64,000 bases of DNA from an uncultured Thermoleophilia bacterium (GTDB lineage Bacteria; Actinomycetota; Thermoleophilia; Miltoncostaeales; Miltoncostaeaceae): assembly GCA_963771025.1 (NCBI GenBank), contig CAVYRL010000003.1, positions 354,267 through 418,266 on the forward strand, in the 5' to 3' direction. The notes below the pieces were generated by a model. The model saw nothing but the letters and a program-made list of their open reading frames with translations. It made no database searches and had not been told where the DNA came from. Shown here piece after piece: positions 28,703 to 58,747 of this stretch; the stretch's first letter is position 1; every line of letters begins with the position of its first letter. The position numbers were made by a program, and so were the translations under genes.

Positions 28703-29431
28703 TCACACGATGCTGACCGGCACCCCGGGCCGTATGCGTTTGGCGATCCACGCGATGCCGCCGTCGCCGAGTCGCACGCAGCCGTGCGAGGCGGCCGTGC
28801 CGAGCCGGCCGCCGATGTTGCGGACGCCGTGGATGGCGACCTGCCCAGGACCTCCATCGAACTCCTGGAACACCGGGGAGCGCGCGCTGAGGGCGAGGGC
28901 GAACGGAGCGCCGGGGCGTCCGGCGGAGAGCCGCACGTTCTCCTCGACGAAGTACTCGCCGCGCGGCGTCGGCGTGGACGGAGCGCCCACGATCGCCCTC
29001 AGGTCGCGCACTCGCAGCCCCTTCCGATAGACCCTCACGTGGCGGCTGCGCAGGTCGATCACGATCCGCCACGGCGTGGCGGAGATGCGGGTCGATGTGG
29101 TGCGGATCCAACCGGTCGGCGGCGGTTTGGCCCCACGCAGGGCACGGCCGGGAAGGCGCACCCGCAGCCAGTGGCGCGCCCGCAGGTCGGTGCTGTGATC
29201 GATGACCGGCAGCAGCGTGCGGCCGCCCGTGATCGGCCTCCGCGGGGCGACGCGGGCCACGACCCGGGAGGTCGTGCTCGGCCGGGCATGGGCCACGTGG
29301 ACGGTGAGAACCGTCGCGATCTCCTGATCCACGCCGGCGCCCGCGGCCTGCGCTCCGGCGGGCAGGGCCACGGCGCAGGCGGCGACCACCGCCGCCCGCG
29401 CAAGCGTCGAGCGCAGCGACACGGCCGTCAA
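28703..29431 (-). CDS. Secreted L,D-transpeptidase (YkuD family)
   Basis: IVIDLRSRHV, IVGAPSTPTPRGEY and AIHG...SHGCVRL catalytic motifs. TTG start overlaps the upstream stop (TTGA). Confidence 0.9.
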   Translation of the reverse strand: MTAVSLRSTLARAAVVAACAVALPAGAQAAGAGVDQEIATVLTVHVAHARPSTTSRVVARVAPRRPITGGRTLLPVIDHSTDLRARHWLRVRLPGRALRGAKPPPTGWIRTTSTRISATPWRIVIDLRSRHVRVYRKGLRVRDLRAIVGAPSTPTPRGEYFVEENVRLSAGRPGAPFALALSARSPVFQEFDGGPGQVAIHGVRNIGGRLGTAASHGCVRLGDGGIAWIAKRIRPGVPVSIV

Positions 29432-30636
29432 CCCGTGAAGCCGACGGTGGTACGCGGCGTCAGGAACCGGACCCGGCGCGACGGAACCCGCGCCCGCCCC
29501 TCGGCACATGCGCGGAATCGCATTCGGAGCGTGGAGGCGGGGGTCGCATCCGTGTAGAGGACGCGCGCCCTGACGATGTGGATGCCCCGCCTGGACCTGA
29601 CAACCGCACGGAACGGCGCCGTGCGACGGTTCGCGATCGTGAGGCCGTCGAGCGAGAAGACGACCCGCCGGATGTTGACCCCGGTCACGCGGACCGGGAA
29701 CGTGTCCTGCACGCAGCGGCTGACTCCGAAGCGCGACACCGAGTTGCCGATCGAGCGCGGGATCGTCGAGAAGACGCTCGTCCCGTTGCTCGCCGTCGGA
29801 CCGATGCCACCTCCGCCGCCCGGCGGGGTGCCGCCCGGCGCGGTGCCGCCCGGCGCGGTGCCGCCCGGCGTGGTGCCGCCCGGCGTGCTCGTCGCGCAGT
29901 TGGCGGCGGTGATCCGGTCGTTGATGAGGGTGACCGCGCCGTTGCGCGCCAGCGCCCGCCCCTGGATGGTCACGCCGTTCTTCACCGAGATCGACTGCAG
30001 GGCGAGGATGCTGCCCACGAAGGTGGTGGTGGTGCCGAGCGTCGCGGAGCTGCCGATCTGCCAGAAGACGTTGCACGGCTGAGCGCCGTTGACCATTCTC
30101 ACGCGGCTCGCCGACGCGGTCGTCAGCGTCGAACCGGCCTGGAACACGAAGACGGCGTCCGGGTTGCCCTGGGCGTCGAGGGTCAGCGCACCGGTCAGCC
30201 CGACCGACGAGGCGGACTTGTAGACGCCCGAGGTGAGGGTCAGGCCGCCGAGGTCGCCGGCGATGCTCACGGGCGGGGTCCGCCCGGCGGCGTCGTTGTA
30301 CGCGGTCGTGAGGTCCGACTGGGCCTGGAGGGCCGGTCCGTCAGCGGCGTGGATCGTGCCGTTGACGGTACCCGGCGGGAAGCCGGTGATGGCGGCCCCG
30401 GGGGTCAGTCCCAGGTTGCCGTTGATGACCGAGGGGCCGGTGTTGGTGATGGTGGAACCGGCCAGCACGGCGTAGGCGTCGGCGGTGCCGAGCCCAACGG
30501 GCGCCTGGGCGGCGAAGGCGCTTGTCGCGAGCAGCGAGGAGGCTGCGCAGGCGACGCCCACGAGGCTGATGCGACGCGCGACGCCGCCTCCGGCCGCTCG
30601 CGAGGAGCCTGGCGTGGTGCGGGTCGTGCGACGCAT
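29428..30636 (-). CDS. Secreted ice-binding (DUF3494) protein with TPGG linker and basic C-terminal domain ending GFTG
   Basis: LGTADAYAVLAGSTITNTG, LTSGVY, VFVFQAGSTL, NVFWQIGSSATLG and QGRALAR motifs. Confidence 0.92.
   Translation of the reverse strand: MRRTTRTTPGSSRAAGGGVARRISLVGVACAASSLLATSAFAAQAPVGLGTADAYAVLAGSTITNTGPSVINGNLGLTPGAAITGFPPGTVNGTIHAADGPALQAQSDLTTAYNDAAGRTPPVSIAGDLGGLTLTSGVYKSASSVGLTGALTLDAQGNPDAVFVFQAGSTLTTASASRVRMVNGAQPCNVFWQIGSSATLGTTTTFVGSILALQSISVKNGVTIQGRALARNGAVTLINDRITAANCATSTPGGTTPGGTAPGGTAPGGTPPGGGGGIGPTASNGTSVFSTIPRSIGNSVSRFGVSRCVQDTFPVRVTGVNIRRVVFSLDGLTIANRRTAPFRAVVRSRRGIHIVRARVLYTDATPASTLRMRFRACAEGRARVPSRRVRFLTPRTTVGFTG
29816..29887. repeat. About five copies of a 15-bp tandem repeat encoding (T/A)xPGG linker
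   Basis: CCGCCCGGCG(C/G/T)GGTG units. Confidence 0.85.
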
Positions 30637-51787: not shown

Positions 51788-52945
51788 TCAGCCGGCGAGG
51801 GCCGGCGTGCCGACCGGACGCTCCTGTGGATCGATCGCGCCGAGGTCCGCGACGATCTCGAAGCGGCCGCCTCGGGCCTGGCCGATGTACATGTTCATCC
51901 GCACGTGGTGCTGGCCGGGCACCATCGCCGCCGGCCCGCCCGGGCCCTCGGTGATCTGCGCGCTGTCGAGGGCGGCGATCACGTCGTCGCGCGTCAGCGA
52001 GCCGGCTTCCGTCACCGCCACGGCCCAGAGCAGCATCGCGCGGTAGAGGCCGGAGCACCCGCTGCCACCGGTGAACTGCGCGCCACCGGGGTAGAGCGCG
52101 TCGTACTGCGCGAGAAGCCTCCGGCTGAACCGATCGTCGACCGACTGGTAATAGTCGAGGCAGCCGTAGAGCCCCTCGACCTGCTCCGCCGGCATCAGGT
52201 TGAGGAGGTTCTCGTCGAAGTACGTGCAGACGAGGTGTCCGCCGCGGCTCGTGAAGCCGGAGTCGTGCAGCTGTTCGAAGAACGGCATGAGCCCGGGAGG
52301 CACGATGGTGTTGAACACCACCTCCGCGCCGGTCGAGACGATCCTGTCGACCGTCGCCCCGTAGTCGGCGTGGTCGAGGGGGAAGTACTCCTCGCCGACG
52401 ATGGCCCCGCCGTTGGCCGTCACGACCTCCCGGACCCGCGCGTTCAGCACGTGCGGCCAGACGTAGTCGGCGGACGGCAGGTAGAAGGTCTTCGCCCCCG
52501 TCTCGCGCATCAGCCACGGGATGAACGGGTCGATCTGCTGCGCCGGCACCGGGCCGGTGCAGAAGATGAGTGGGTCCGACTCCTGGCCCTCGTATTGCTC
52601 GGGATAGATGTAGAGCGTCTTGCCCTCGACGACGGCGGGGCCCTTGATGGCCTGCCGCGTCGAGCTGTAGATGCCACCGAAGACGACATCGACCCGATCG
52701 TCATCGACCAACTTCCCGGCCGCGGCCGCCGCGGCGGAGTCGTCGGTCGCGCCGTCCTCGAGGCGCAGCTCCAGGCGCCGCCCCAAGAGGCCGCCCCTGG
52801 CGTTGATGTCGCCGATGACCATCCTCGCCACATTCACGTGGGCGAGCCCCATGAACGAGAGCGCGCCCGTCTGGTCGGCGATGACCCCCACCTTGATGGG
52901 GTCCCCGCTCGTTCCCCGCGTTGGATCCGCCACGGTGTCCTCCAT
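51788..52945 (-). CDS. AmiC/UrtA-like amide/urea-binding protein without signal peptide
   Basis: IKVGVI..QTG, INARGGLLGRRL, YEG.E, DYVWP and GEEYFPL motifs. Confidence 0.85.
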   Translation of the reverse strand: MEDTVADPTRGTSGDPIKVGVIADQTGALSFMGLAHVNVARMVIGDINARGGLLGRRLELRLEDGATDDSAAAAAAGKLVDDDRVDVVFGGIYSSTRQAIKGPAVVEGKTLYIYPEQYEGQESDPLIFCTGPVPAQQIDPFIPWLMRETGAKTFYLPSADYVWPHVLNARVREVVTANGGAIVGEEYFPLDHADYGATVDRIVSTGAEVVFNTIVPPGLMPFFEQLHDSGFTSRGGHLVCTYFDENLLNLMPAEQVEGLYGCLDYYQSVDDRFSRRLLAQYDALYPGGAQFTGGSGCSGLYRAMLLWAVAVTEAGSLTRDDVIAALDSAQITEGPGGPAAMVPGQHHVRMNMYIGQARGGRFEIVADLGAIDPQERPVGTPALAG

Positions 52946-54603
52946 TTCGTCGGCGTGTGCCGGCCGCTCGGCGCGACCGTCAGCAGCGCGTGGTGTGGGA
53001 GGATGCTCCTACCGTCGTGGGGTCCCACACATCGGGAGTACGCCCCATCTTGGACAGACCGCTTCGCCTCGCCGAGTTCGTCGCCACGTTGGCTCTCGCG
53101 CAGGACAACGCCTTCGGCCAGCCACTCGAGTCGCAACTGCGCTCGTGCCTGCTCGCGTCGTGGATCTGCGAGGAGGCGGGATTCGAGAGGGACGTGAGCG
53201 AGACCGTCTACTGGGTGGCGCTCCTGCGGTACGTCGGCTGCACCGGTCATGCCCACGAGGTCGCGACCGTGTTCGGCGACGAGATCGCGATTCGCGCGCA
53301 GACGCTGGTGCACGACGCCGCCGATCCCAACGAGGTCATGAGCGACGTCGTGACCTTCGCGACCGCGGGGCGCTCCGAGGACGAGCGGGACGAGATCATC
53401 CGGATGCTCCAGGAGACGGCCCACGAGTGGGCGGTCCACAACTTCTCGTCCGGGTGCGAGGTCGCCGACATGCTCGTGCGACGCCTCGACTTCGGCCCGG
53501 GCGTCCGTGAGGCGCTGGCCTTCACGTTCGAGCGCTGGAACGGCAACGGCTTCCCCGTCCATGCGCGCGGGGAGGACATTCCGCTCCCGATGCGCGTCGT
53601 ACACCTCAGCCACGACATGGAGGCGCTCGGTCGCCTCTTCTCCGTCGACCGCGCGCTCGACGCCGCCCGCGATCGCCGCGATCGCACGTACGACCCGGCC
53701 CTCGCCGATCTGTTCGTCGCAAACGGGCGCGGCTGGTTCGATCGGCTCCGCCAGATCGAGCCATGGGACGCCGTCCTGGCCCTCGAGCCCGAGCCGCGCC
53801 GCATGCTCGATGGGCAGGCCCTCGACGACACGCTGGTGGTCGCCGCCGACTTCATCGACCTCAAGTCGCCGTACATGGGCGGGCACAGTCGTCGATGCGC
53901 ACAGCTCGCCACCGACGCCGCCCGTGTGCTCGGGCTCCCCGAGGACGCCACCACGACCCTCCGCCGGGCGGCGCTCGTGCACGACTTCGGCACCACCGCG
54001 GTGCCGAACTCGATCTGGGACAAGCCCGGCCCGCTGACGCGAACCGAATTCGACCGCGTCGAGCTTCATCCGATGTTGACCGAGCAGATGCTGCGCCGCT
54101 CGCCGGCCCTCGACGCGCTCAACCCGATCGCTTCCGCGCACCACGAGAAGTGCGATGGATCCGGTTACCACCGGCGCGTGCGCGCCGACGGCGATCCGGG
54201 AGCGTGCGTCCTGGCCGCGACGGAGGTCTACGTGGGGCTCACCACCGAGCGAGCGGACCGTCCGCCGTTCTCGGATGCGGACGCGGCGGCGGAGCTGCGT
54301 CGCCTCGACGAGGAGCGCGTGCTCGAGCCCCGCGCGACCCGCGCCGTGCTCGTGGCCGCCGGACACGGCGAGGCGGCGGCCGGCGTACCCAGACGCCCAC
54401 GGCACCCCGGCGGACTCTCCCCTCGCGAAGCCGACGTGCTGCGCCTGGCCGCACGAGGGCTCACGACGCGCCAGATCGCCGATCGACTCGTCATCTCGCC
54501 CAAGACCGCCGATCACCACATCCAGCACATCTACAACAAGATCGGCGTATCGACACGGGCCGCCGCCGCTCTGTGGGCCATTCAGAACGACGTCGTGCGC
54601 TGA
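52921..54603 (+). CDS. HD-GYP-like domain plus LuxR HTH regulator
   Basis: ERWNG.G.P, HDFG..AVPNSIWDKPG.L, HHEKCDGSGY and C-terminal LuxR HTH. True start probably near 53050. Confidence 0.88.
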   Translation: MDPPRCPPFRRRVPAARRDRQQRVVWEDAPTVVGSHTSGVRPILDRPLRLAEFVATLALAQDNAFGQPLESQLRSCLLASWICEEAGFERDVSETVYWVALLRYVGCTGHAHEVATVFGDEIAIRAQTLVHDAADPNEVMSDVVTFATAGRSEDERDEIIRMLQETAHEWAVHNFSSGCEVADMLVRRLDFGPGVREALAFTFERWNGNGFPVHARGEDIPLPMRVVHLSHDMEALGRLFSVDRALDAARDRRDRTYDPALADLFVANGRGWFDRLRQIEPWDAVLALEPEPRRMLDGQALDDTLVVAADFIDLKSPYMGGHSRRCAQLATDAARVLGLPEDATTTLRRAALVHDFGTTAVPNSIWDKPGPLTRTEFDRVELHPMLTEQMLRRSPALDALNPIASAHHEKCDGSGYHRRVRADGDPGACVLAATEVYVGLTTERADRPPFSDADAAAELRRLDEERVLEPRATRAVLVAAGHGEAAAGVPRRPRHPGGLSPREADVLRLAARGLTTRQIADRLVISPKTADHHIQHIYNKIGVSTRAAAALWAIQNDVVR

Positions 54604-54702: not shown

Positions 54703-56292
54703 CTACGGGATGACCACGGTCGCCCCGCGCGCGGTCACGCGCGGGGCGTTGCCCCCGCCGGCCGTGACCCGGTTGACGTACCCGCCGGTCCGGGCCCTGC
54801 GGTTCAGGCGGGTGGTGATCCGGAAGATCCTGCGCGCGCCCGGCGCGAGGACGGACATCGTCCAATGGAGCCGATGCCCGGCGAGGATCCCGTGGCCACG
54901 CGCCCCGAACGTCGCGCCTTTCGCGAGGTAGTCGTTCACCTGGACGCGGGAGGCGGCGACACGACCGCAGTTCGACACGACGATCGTCCATCGGACCCCG
55001 CCGCCCCGGCGAACGGAGCGGCGGCTGGCCGTGTTGGTGATGCACAGTGCCGCCGAGGCGGCCGGCGCCGCGGCGCCGGGCTTCCCGGTGGGCCCGTCGG
55101 CGCCCCTCAGACCGGGCGGACCCGGTAGCCCGGTGAGGCCCGTGGGGCCGATGGGGCCGGTGAGGCCGGTGGGGCCGGCATCGCCGGTGAGGCCCGCGGG
55201 GCCGATCGGGCCGGTGGCGCCGTCGGCGCCGGTGGGACCGGTATCGCCGGTGGGGCCGGTATCGCCGGTGAGGCCTGCGGGGCCGATCAGGCCGTCGGCG
55301 CCGATCAGGCCGTCGGCGCCGGTGAGGCCGGTGGGGCCGTCAGCGCCGGTGAGGCCCGCGGGGCCAATCAGGCCGTCGGGGCCGATCAGGCCGTCGGCGC
55401 CGGTGAGGCCGGTGGGGCCGTCAGCGCCGGTGGGGCCCGCGGGGCCGATCAGGCCGTCGGCGCCGGCGGGCCCGGTGGCGCCATCAACGCCGTCAGCGCC
55501 GGCGGGGCCCGCGGGGCCGACGGGCCCCGGCACGAACACCGTCTCCCTGCACGCGGTGCGAACGGCCGTCGAGGCCATGGTGACGGTGCCCGTGTCCGCC
55601 AGGATCCGTCCATCGACGCGGCTTCCAGCCCCCACCGAGACGCCGACGAAGGCCATCACGGTGCCGGCGAACTTCGCCGTCGCACCGATCGTCGTCGAGC
55701 CGTTGACGGCCCAGAAGACGTTGCAGGGATCGGCTCCGTTGATCAATTCCACCACCGCCGAGGCGCCGACCGTGAGAGCCCCCCCGATCTGGAGAATGAA
55801 CACGGCGTCCGGGTCGCCGCCGCCGTCGAGCGTCAGGGTCGTGCCCGCCGTGAAGCCCACCGCCGTCGTCGAGTTGTAGACGCCCGGCGACAGCGAGGCC
55901 CCGCCGAGCTCGGCGACGAGGTCGGGCCCCGGGGACGCGGGCGCGAGCCTCGCGTCTCCGTATGCGAGATTCAGAGCCGCCTTGGCCGCGATGGCATCCG
56001 CGTCACCGAGGTGGGTCTCTCCGAGCACGATCGGGGGAGTGTCACCGGCCAGCACCCCCCCGATGCCGATGCCGAGGTTCTCGGACATGGCCGTGGCCCC
56101 GTTGCTCGTGACCGAGTTGCCGAGGACCGAGTAGGAGCCCGCCGCGCCCATGTCAACCGGATCGACCGCGAGGGCCGGTGCGGAAAACGCCAGCGCGAGG
56201 ACCGACACCGACAACGCCACGAGCGGGCGTCGCACCGCTCGCGTGCGGGTGGGACGAGCGACGGGGCGGGCCGAGGGCGCGGGAACGGGCAT
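54703..56292 (-). CDS. Secreted ice-binding (DUF3494) protein with collagen-like stalk and DUF11-like C-terminal domain
   Basis: Signal peptide; [25 protein letters not shown] and DGRILA motifs; 51 Gly-X-Y triplets; W.I.V.N.G...V.V.D.L motif. Confidence 0.88.
55069..55527 (-). repeat. Uninterrupted collagen-like (Gly-X-Y)51 repeat
   Basis: Counted from GPV to GAA; built from recurring [12 protein letters not shown] and GAD-GPT blocks. Confidence 0.92.
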
Positions 56293-56382
56293 CTCGGTGT
56301 TCCATCGGCACATCTCCACTCAAAAACGATCTTCAAGCGGAACTTAATTCTCCGGCCGTGTCGAGCAGACCCCTGCGCGACC

Positions 56383-56418
56383 GGGGCGACGGCCACGTGC
56401 CATCGTGGCCGTCGCCCC
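56383..56418 (-). terminator. 15-bp perfect hairpin after sodA
   Basis: GGGGCGACGGCCACG-6 nt-CGTGGCCGTCGCCCC. Confidence 0.75.
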
Positions 56419-57245: not shown

Positions 57246-57968
57246 CTACGCGTCCAGCGCCAGCGAGCCGTCCACGACCTGCTGGGCGACCTCCCCCAGC
57301 CGCGTGGAGCTGCGACGCGCGTAGAGGCGAAGCCGCGCGAACGCCTGATCCGGCGTTTCGCCGGCTCTCTGGGCGACGATGCCCTTGGCCTGCTCGATGG
57401 TGATCCTCGTCTGCAGGGCCTCCTGCATGTGATCCGCCACCGTCTGGGCGTCGTTGGCGCTCCTGCTCTGCAGGACGGCGATCGTGGCGACGTCGGCGAG
57501 AGCCTGGGCCGTGGCGATGTCCGATTCGCTCAGGGCGAAGGGTTCGGTCCGAAAGAGATTCATCGCGCCGAGCACCCGACCGCGCAGCCGCAGCGGGAAG
57601 GCGTGCGCCGCCCGGAAACCGGCGGCGGCCGCCACGGGGGCAAACCGGGGCCAGCGGACGTTCTCGTCCTCGAGGTTCAGGGTCGTCACCGACCTCCCGA
57701 GGTGGAAGCAGTCGCGGCAGGGACCCTCGTCCGACTGGATCTGGAACAGCTCAACCGCCTCGGTGGCCTCGCTCGTGGCCGCCATCAGGTGCAGGGTGCC
57801 GTCGGAGTCGGCCAGCAGGAGGCCCGCTGCGGCGGTATCGAGCAGCTCGACGCACCGCTCGGTGAGGAGCACCATCAGATCGACGACATCGAAGTCCTCC
57901 ACCAGGCAGTCCGTCAACTCGACGAGGGTCTGTGCGAGTCGCGTGTCCGCGGGTCGTGGGCCTGCCAT
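57246..57968 (-). CDS. GAF + ANTAR domain protein
   Basis: GAF (EGPC.DC) plus ANTAR (ALQTRITIEQAKGIVA...AFARLR.YAR). Confidence 0.93.
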   Translation of the reverse strand: MAGPRPADTRLAQTLVELTDCLVEDFDVVDLMVLLTERCVELLDTAAAGLLLADSDGTLHLMAATSEATEAVELFQIQSDEGPCRDCFHLGRSVTTLNLEDENVRWPRFAPVAAAAGFRAAHAFPLRLRGRVLGAMNLFRTEPFALSESDIATAQALADVATIAVLQSRSANDAQTVADHMQEALQTRITIEQAKGIVAQRAGETPDQAFARLRLYARRSSTRLGEVAQQVVDGSLALDA

Positions 57969-58024: not shown

Positions 58025-58747
58025 TCAGCATTTCGCGAGGTCCAATCGGCGACCGACGACATCGTCGGATACCTGCGCGAGCGACCGGGCCTCCGAGAAG
58101 GCGTGGGCCCGCAGACGGATCAGGGCCTCACCGACTCCGACGGCCAGCTGGACGCTCACCATCCCCGAGGCCTGGTGCAGTACGGCGTTGTTCGCCGCCA
58201 GGGTCTCGAGATGGGGGCTCAGACCCTCGCTCCACGTCTCACCCTGGATGGCGAGGATCGCCGACGTCGCCAGGTCGGCGATACCGATCGCGTCGGCGTG
58301 CTGATCGTCCGAGAGCTCGCCCGCACGCGTCTGGTACACGGTGAGGGCCCCCAGCCGGATGCCGCCCAGCCGCAGCGGAAAGGAGAACACCGCCTGCGCG
58401 CCGGCCTCCGCGGCGCCGGAGGCGAAGGCGATCCACCGTTGCTGCCGGGGGTGCAGGAGATTGGGCTCGGCGACGGGGCGCCCCGTCGCGTGGGCATCCA
58501 CCGACGGCCCCTCGCCGAGCGTGAGCTGAAGATCCTCGAGACGGTCGGCCAGCTCGTCCGACGACGAGAGCACCGACGCGATGCCCTCGGTCATCACCAT
58601 CAGGCTGGCCCCGGACACGCCGAGCATCTCCACGCACGCGAGGCAGAGGTCGCGCGCCGGGTCGGGTCCATTGATCGCGCCGACGGCCGCGGCGATGCGC
58701 TGAAATCTCCCGAGGGGACCAGCGCCCATCCAGGGCACGGGGATCAC
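58025..58747 (-). CDS. GAF + ANTAR domain protein
   Basis: LGEGPS.DA GAF motif; VLHQASGMVSVQL...EALIRLRAHAF ANTAR-like motif. Start may be 58729. Confidence 0.9.
   Translation of the reverse strand: MIPVPWMGAGPLGRFQRIAAAVGAINGPDPARDLCLACVEMLGVSGASLMVMTEGIASVLSSSDELADRLEDLQLTLGEGPSVDAHATGRPVAEPNLLHPRQQRWIAFASGAAEAGAQAVFSFPLRLGGIRLGALTVYQTRAGELSDDQHADAIGIADLATSAILAIQGETWSEGLSPHLETLAANNAVLHQASGMVSVQLAVGVGEALIRLRAHAFSEARSLAQVSDDVVGRRLDLAKC

Follow-up and report, generated by a model that had tools for sequence, protein, structure and literature searches.

Gene and domain organization

The window analysed here, a stretch of 64,000 nucleotides from an uncultured Thermoleophilia bacterium, encodes on its minus strand (54703..56292) a protein of 529 residues in which a signal peptide, a DUF3494 (Ice_binding) head, a collagen-like stalk and a strongly cationic DUF11/CLIPPER Ig-like domain follow one another, the last of which we call the foot. 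The design is kept in a family of soil Actinomycetota of the Thermoleophilia type, and the protein may act as a fibre that presents its heads at or outside the cell surface. The open reading frame (ORF) spans 54703..56319, within which an ATG at 56292 gives 529 codons plus the stop and an alternative in-frame GTG lies at 56319; the start at 56292 is favoured because the N-termini of homologues begin alike (MSVPA...).

Residues 1-42 (56167..56292, minus strand), to which AlphaFold2 gives a predicted local distance difference test score (pLDDT) below 50, were judged by eye and from the family alignment to be a signal peptide with an Arg-rich n-region, a hydrophobic core and an ALA-VD cleavage motif. 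Export is assigned to the Sec type because a twin-Arg motif is not kept across the family, and export by the twin-arginine (Tat) route was rejected on the same ground.

The head occupies residues 43-248 (55549..56166, minus strand). Pfam places Ice_binding (PF11999) over residues 60-244 (E 3.4e-42; 144.9 bits against a cut-off of 28.7), and the AlphaFold2 monomer model of this region (pLDDT 85-92) has a helix at 98-116 and stacked short strands, which is the right-handed triangular beta-solenoid with a long flanking alpha-helix that is the structural hallmark of PF11999. The best match by structure was EfcIBP (PDB 6eio; Foldseek template-modelling (TM) score 0.88, root-mean-square deviation 1.5 Å, 35% identity, phmmer against PDB 5.5e-32), and all 31 of the best PDB fold matches were DUF3494 ice-binding or antifreeze entries (TM 0.75-0.92). 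The NCBIfam equivalog model IBP_CFB (NF045625) scored 71 bits against a cut-off of 400, so that the head does not count as an equivalog of the ice-binding protein of Bacteroidota. The head carries Cys190 and Cys248 with a 59-residue spacing, a pair that is also present in 95 DUF3494 domains without collagen; we infer that it is a trait of this branch of heads and most simply forms an internal disulfide closing the last coil, its occurrence in stalk-less domains speaking against an inter-chain knot of the stalk.

The stalk (residues 256-408; 55069..55527, minus strand) consists by script count of 51 Gly-X-Y triplets without interruption, a number that rests on the assembled sequence, as no contig from the four soil runs that were mapped spans it. 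Pfam Collagen (PF01391) matches it at E 4.5e-24. Pro occupies the X position in 20 of the 51 triplets (39%) and Thr the Y position in 19, imino acids make up 15% of the residues, and the charged residues include 14 Asp, a single Lys and a single Arg; like the head, the stalk is acidic, with an isoelectric point (pI) of ~4. The NCBIfam models for Scl1/Scl2 and Lcl (NF038329, NF038330, NF046116) reached 65-88 bits against cut-offs of 325-500, with the Gly-X-Y stretch alone being matched. In the DNA, Tandem Repeats Finder resolved a period of 81 nucleotides (9 triplets) at 55156..55465, with 3.8 copies and 87% matches. An earlier note on this DNA had read a signal peptide, DUF3494, (GXY)51 and a basic, Arg-rich Ig-like domain in this order, together with internal block duplications in the stalk; all of the parts are present as read (Pfam, script count), and the duplications are those of the 81-nucleotide period.

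A short linker and the cationic Ig-like domain make up residues 409-529 (54706..55068, minus strand). The charged residues in this C-terminal part of 121 residues include 19 Arg, 1 Lys and 1 Asp, with Glu absent, which corresponds to a pI of 12 and a net charge of +15.7 per 100 residues. DUF11 (PF01345) was found over residues 416-511 (E 4.5e-11; 43.5 bits against a cut-off of 24.6), and the AlphaFold2 model of the foot (pLDDT 82-93) superposes on the CLIPPER structure 9ifr at a Foldseek TM of 0.76. The CLIPPER (DUF11) domain has been described as carrying a Lys-Asn isopeptide cross-link (bioRxiv 10.1101/2025.04.25.650565). A weak sequence alignment to 9ifr (E 0.11) brings its K715 to Asn420, its N806 to N507 and its catalytic Asp to D453, so that the isopeptide cannot form in this foot, where Asn420 takes the position of the Lys; about a third of the family members have K there. 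In the model Cys417 stands at the start of strand A and Cys442 at the end of strand B, and we infer that the two are well placed for a disulfide that would substitute for the isopeptide.

The charge of the foot is exceptional for its domain type. The top library matches with the foot are giant multi-DUF11 adhesins, and among the 1030 DUF11 domains of the 150 best of 6429 matches the median pI is 4.2, with 0.2% above pI 10. A word-based search with the foot region returned three matches and no other protein type with the same foot. The C-terminus (...RGATVVIP) is without LPXTG/LAxTG, a membrane helix, a lipobox or a known wall-binding module.

Occurrence in soil Actinomycetota

A search with the head region found approximately 28 protein clusters that join PF11999 to PF01391, most of them also to PF01345, with heads 53-74% identical to that of the window and almost all of them from metagenomes; an architecture that recurs in this many clusters is not a product of chance. 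Among species-representative genomes the full architecture was found only in a metagenome-assembled genome (MAG) of Thermoleophilaceae (L001, with L029 likely being the same locus). The two were considered as paralogues and this was rejected, their N-termini being identical and L029 being frameshifted; the locus is probably represented twice, by redundant contigs. The organism of the window itself was detected, at low depth, in metagenomes of soil and sediment.

Complete members follow a common plan, in which the signal peptide and a head ending in ...RTAC are followed by 7 residues (8 in two members), the Gly-X-Y run, usually a further 5-11 residues, then a Cys and the foot. The run has 12-48 triplets in the other complete members, which makes the 51 of the window the longest seen, and Gly at each third position is unbroken across the family despite this range of length. 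The foot has a pI of 11-12 in every complete member and the stalk is never basic. Since the comparison DUF11 domains rarely exceed pI 10, this family-wide basic foot is a derived and selected trait.

The two Cys pairs and the length of the stalk bear on two further points of the earlier note. The note had placed Cys residues on either side of the stalk, and the positions are indeed there, with all four (190, 248, 417 and 442 in the window protein) invariant in the family alignment; a role specific to the stalk did not hold up, as Cys190/Cys248 and Cys417/Cys442 are pairs internal to their domains. Its expectation that the stalk varies in length is borne out by the family range and by four allele pairs, whose heads are 95-99% identical and whose stalks are 11-21 triplets apart. 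The length thus changes fast and always in whole triplets, and repeat collapse in assembly could contribute to these differences.

Some members depart from the common plan. In a long-read MAG (L085, 6001-7430) the protein is split into an ORF of 311 residues with head and collagen and an ORF of 125 residues with the CLIPPER domain, the result of a frameshift within the repeat that is due either to faulty assembly or to a genuine disruption; P0006, P0020 and L029 resemble this split member. In another pair, P0007 and P0009, the heads are 94% identical and the feet 37% identical, a contrast that may point to recombination at the stalk or to an exchange of modules there.

A related sortase-anchored design in Streptomycetaceae

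Many genomes of Streptomyces, Kitasatospora and Actinacidiphila (L002-L016, L066, L067) encode a related protein, with examples at 7779-10139 of L067 and 7890-9590 of L008, in which Pfam confirms both the head and the collagen. As in the window protein, a signal peptide and a DUF3494 head with the same Cys pair are followed directly by the stalk, the Gly-X-Y run of the Streptomycetaceae proteins beginning two residues past the second Cys. The Streptomycetaceae proteins differ in having 56-133 triplets and, in place of the cationic CLIPPER foot, a His/Asp/Gly-rich segment of metal-binding appearance and a sortase signal, that is LAxTG, a hydrophobic helix and a basic tail, with a conserved KPPWADFLPGGLDDALG motif between the His/Asp/Gly-rich segment and LAxTG. 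The NCBIfam model strep_LAETG, which has a cut-off of 30 bits, scored 34.5 bits in L008 and 26.6 bits in L002.

The heads of these proteins are 36-43% identical to the head of the window. In the head tree the two collagen-bearing groups form separate clades (99 and 97 in the Shimodaira-Hasegawa-like approximate likelihood ratio test) with stalk-less heads between them, and a long stem branch (0.55) sets the heads of the present family apart from other heads of actinobacterial origin. A single clade of collagen-bearing heads was not rejected by the approximately unbiased test (p 0.449), and independent assembly of the two designs is possible.

Since the sortase signal fixes the C-terminus of the Streptomycetaceae version to the wall, its head has to lie at the far end. 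The cationic foot of the window protein occupies the position of the LAxTG anchor, which is the strongest support at hand for a lollipop topology in this protein as well; the outward-facing head that the earlier note had proposed is accordingly plausible.

Genomic context

The gene is flanked by a convergent regulator with HD_5 (HD-GYP-type) and GerE (LuxR-type) domains at 52921-54603 (plus strand) and, upstream on the same strand, by a Fe/Mn superoxide dismutase. Ten nucleotides past the stop of the dismutase lies a perfect 15-bp GC-rich hairpin with a 6-nucleotide loop and no T-tract (56383..56418, minus strand; folding energy -40.6 kcal/mol, z -4.7), which is likely a transcript end or stabiliser of the actinobacterial type; as a transcript end it would mean that the ice-binding-like gene probably has its own promoter and is transcribed separately. 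Nucleotide composition at the locus is unremarkable except for the GC-rich repeat, and no flanking repeats were found around the gene in the window.

A like regulator adjoins a family member in L081 (6014-7684), where it is divergent and carries a receiver domain, and a superoxide dismutase adjoins a family member in the window and in L084 only, in differing orientations. A conserved operon with either gene was rejected on account of these orientations and of the absence of both genes from five other loci. Upstream of the dismutase, tandem GAF-domain proteins are encoded at 57246-57968 and 58025-58747 (both minus strand), the first also with an ANTAR RNA-binding output domain, and the two genes have a stretch of 65 nucleotides in common at 71% identity (repeat D3).

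The window holds a second DUF3494 protein at 29428-30636 (minus strand), of 402 residues. Its signal peptide leads into a head that has 39% identity to the first and the same Cys pair, followed by a Pro/Gly/Thr-rich linker and an Ig-like C-terminus that ends GFTG at the stop codon. An ORF at 28703-30076 on the same strand lies directly downstream of this gene and overlaps it. The genome of the window thus displays DUF3494 heads via at least two routes.

Proposed function and alternative explanations

Taken together, these features are best explained by a Sec-exported surface or extracellular fibre with a head, a collagen rod and a cationic foot, an interpretation to which we give a probability of about 0.5. 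Three chains would be wound into a triple helix with a length of about 44 nm (153 residues x 0.286 nm), giving a three-headed lollipop in which one disulfide, Cys190-Cys248 in the head and Cys417-Cys442 in the foot, would hold each globular end together; that the protein is a trimer with a collagen-type helix is probable by analogy with other bacterial collagens. The acidic heads and rod would be held off from the cell, and the Arg-rich foot would stick electrostatically to anionic wall or matrix polymers, a step suggested by the charge pattern and the LAxTG analogy, and would in this way replace the sortase anchor of the Streptomycetaceae version. By the same analogy, a distal head with the foot at the envelope or in the matrix is moderately favoured. 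The flat solenoid face of the heads would be turned to ice or to another ordered surface, with ice being a tentative ligand to which the similarity of fold, and that only, points. Trivalency would raise apparent affinity, and engineered multimerisation of antifreeze proteins does boost their activity. The earlier note had also suggested that nucleation might be promoted, for which the data lend no support. The benefit to the cell may lie in binding ice, or in limiting its recrystallisation near the envelope, in soils that freeze and thaw, and the length of the stalk would shift readily via recombination between repeats of 9 and 81 nucleotides.

Several observations weigh against this interpretation in whole or in part. 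Across the seven loci compared there are no conserved neighbour genes pointing to a pathway, and the RNA contigs from the soil runs match only the superoxide dismutase neighbour, with identities mostly of 90-95%, and probably stem from other organisms. The remaining ones concern the ligand, the anchor and the stalk in turn, and each lends weight to an alternative.

With regard to the ligand, no sequence motif is diagnostic of the ice-binding face, so that ice binding cannot be told from sequence, and the same architecture could serve a general fibrillar adhesin whose head binds a mineral, a polysaccharide in crystalline form or the surface of another cell. The source of the family is metagenomes of soil and sediment and that of the related design Streptomycetaceae genome records, the heads of the family are set apart on their long stem branch, and DUF3494 proteins occur in hundreds of bacteria of non-freezing habitats, where they may bind mineral substrates (Raymond, 2024; PMC11645318). 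We nevertheless consider a non-ice target somewhat unlikely, as the head has more than a third of its aligned residues in common with an ice-binding protein of experimentally proven activity and superposes closely on it, and its best structural matches are without exception ice-binding or antifreeze entries. Temperate soils freeze too, and DUF3494 proteins with collagen are also found in sea-ice metagenomes (PMC9957290).

The fibre may, alternatively, leave the cell. With neither a covalent nor a membrane anchor at its C-terminus the protein could be released, and a foot of such charge would bind any polyanion, be it matrix, extracellular DNA, humic material or clay, so that the molecule would tie the matrix to ice or particles, or would just be a trivalent ice-binding protein in solution. 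Winder et al. have proposed that ice-binding proteins of this kind anchor biofilms to ice (PMC9957290). Release is made unlikely by the Streptomycetaceae version, which has a covalent wall anchor at the position of the foot, and by the other DUF3494 protein of the same genome, which is anchored by a separate route.

The third alternative replaces the trimer by a monovalent tethered head, with the Gly-X-Y region as a flexible, polyproline-II-like spacer of a single chain. No trimerisation or registration domain was recognised in the protein; the stability of the predicted helix is uncertain, given a low imino-acid content, almost no basic residues to form charge pairs and the lack of a hydroxyproline system; and the AlphaFold2 monomer model gives the stalk no structure (pLDDT below 50), as is expected for a single chain. 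What makes a spacer quite improbable is that two clades hold strictly to Gly at each third residue in stalks of 12-133 triplets, in spite of fast change in length, a periodicity that a mere spacer would not need, and that the length changes always by whole triplets; triple helices are known from GPT/GPA-rich bacterial collagens such as BclA. A remnant of a phage or contractile-injection-system tail fibre, to which matches with PHROG tail-fibre families (E 1e-33) might point, is scarcely credible, since nearly all of these matches cover Gly-X-Y alone and the few longer ones are centred on it, a signal peptide is present, neither the window nor six related loci have phage genes close to the gene, and the locus is without flanking repeats or a composition anomaly beyond the GC-rich repeat.

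The trimeric, cationically anchored fibre remains our preferred explanation, and a natural DUF3494 protein trimerised by collagen would, if true, show bacterial use of avidity and provide a scaffold of tunable length. The family also bears on the role of DUF3494 proteins in organisms other than polar specialists, and an Arg-rich CLIPPER foot would widen the known roles of a widespread adhesin stalk domain. The Streptomycetaceae genome records bear strain names of culture collections (JCM, NRRL, CGMCC), which makes knockouts and surface localisation feasible. A wider conjecture, speculative and decidedly unlikely as a whole, is that soil Actinomycetota make trivalent ice- or crystal-binding devices by setting DUF3494 on tunable collagen helices, maybe assembled twice with different feet (LAxTG, and a disulfide-stapled cationic CLIPPER as a new non-covalent wall anchor), and that these would form a nap of 12-115 nm on cells, hyphae or spores that grips or organises ice by avidity and protects in freeze-thaw.

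Comparison with known systems

In Arctic sea-ice and seawater metagenomes, DUF3494 with collagen and DUF3494 with DUF11 account for 0.24% and 0.16% of ice-binding proteins, respectively, and the authors of that survey suggested that such proteins anchor biofilms to ice (PMC9957290). In the literature searched, which most subscription journals lie outside, the three-part protein, the cationic CLIPPER foot and the LAxTG version of Streptomycetaceae are undescribed; what is already known are the two-domain combinations in this one survey table, and the design can be seen as extender-borne heads like those of SfIBP_1 combined with collagen lollipops like those of Scl. Of the elements of an ice adhesin of the MpIBP and SfIBP_1 type, the head and the extender are present in the window protein, and an anchor is suggested by the charge of the foot and its LAxTG-like position.

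SfIBP_1 of Shewanella frigidimarina (PDB 6BG8) was reportedly proposed to be an ice adhesin by Vance, Graham and Davies in 2018. Like the window protein it has a secreted DUF3494 head (Foldseek TM 0.76) and extender modules that are thought to hold the head at the cell surface; its extender, however, is a single chain of tandem beta-sandwiches without a collagen rod and is not trimeric by design, its source is a Gram-negative marine psychrophile, and its ice binding has been measured, whereas that of the window protein is only predicted. The closest solved structure to the head, EfcIBP from a Euplotes focardii consortium bacterium, is a soluble, single-domain protein without the Cys190/Cys248 pair, stalk or foot.

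With the streptococcal proteins Scl1/Scl2 the window protein shares the order of an N-terminal globular head, uninterrupted Gly-X-Y and C-terminal attachment to the wall, which in its own case would be through the foot, and theirs form a triple helix. The two differ in that the streptococcal proteins have a helical V domain for trimerisation as their head and LPXTG as their anchor, as opposed to a beta-solenoid head and a cationic Ig-like C-terminus, and the SclB model of NCBIfam matches the stalk at 87.6 against 325 bits, the Gly-X-Y region alone being in common. BclA, the glycoprotein of the Bacillus exosporium nap (PDB 1WCK), has collagen-like repeats rich in GPT, the number of which differs from strain to strain and determines the length of the filament, and gave a weak sequence match to the stalk (E 1.5e-05); it differs in its N-terminal attachment, in its C-terminal C1q-like trimerisation domain and in lacking DUF3494 and DUF11.

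Finally, the foot shares with CLIPPER (9IFR) the CnaA-like Ig fold and has, in N507 and D453, residues that align with the Asn and Asp of its isopeptide triad. As a rule CLIPPER is a stalk unit of acidic character that occurs in tandem and bears a Lys-Asn isopeptide, whereas the foot of the window protein is single, terminal and strongly basic, with Asn420 instead of the Lys and a Cys417/Cys442 pair that is specific to its family.

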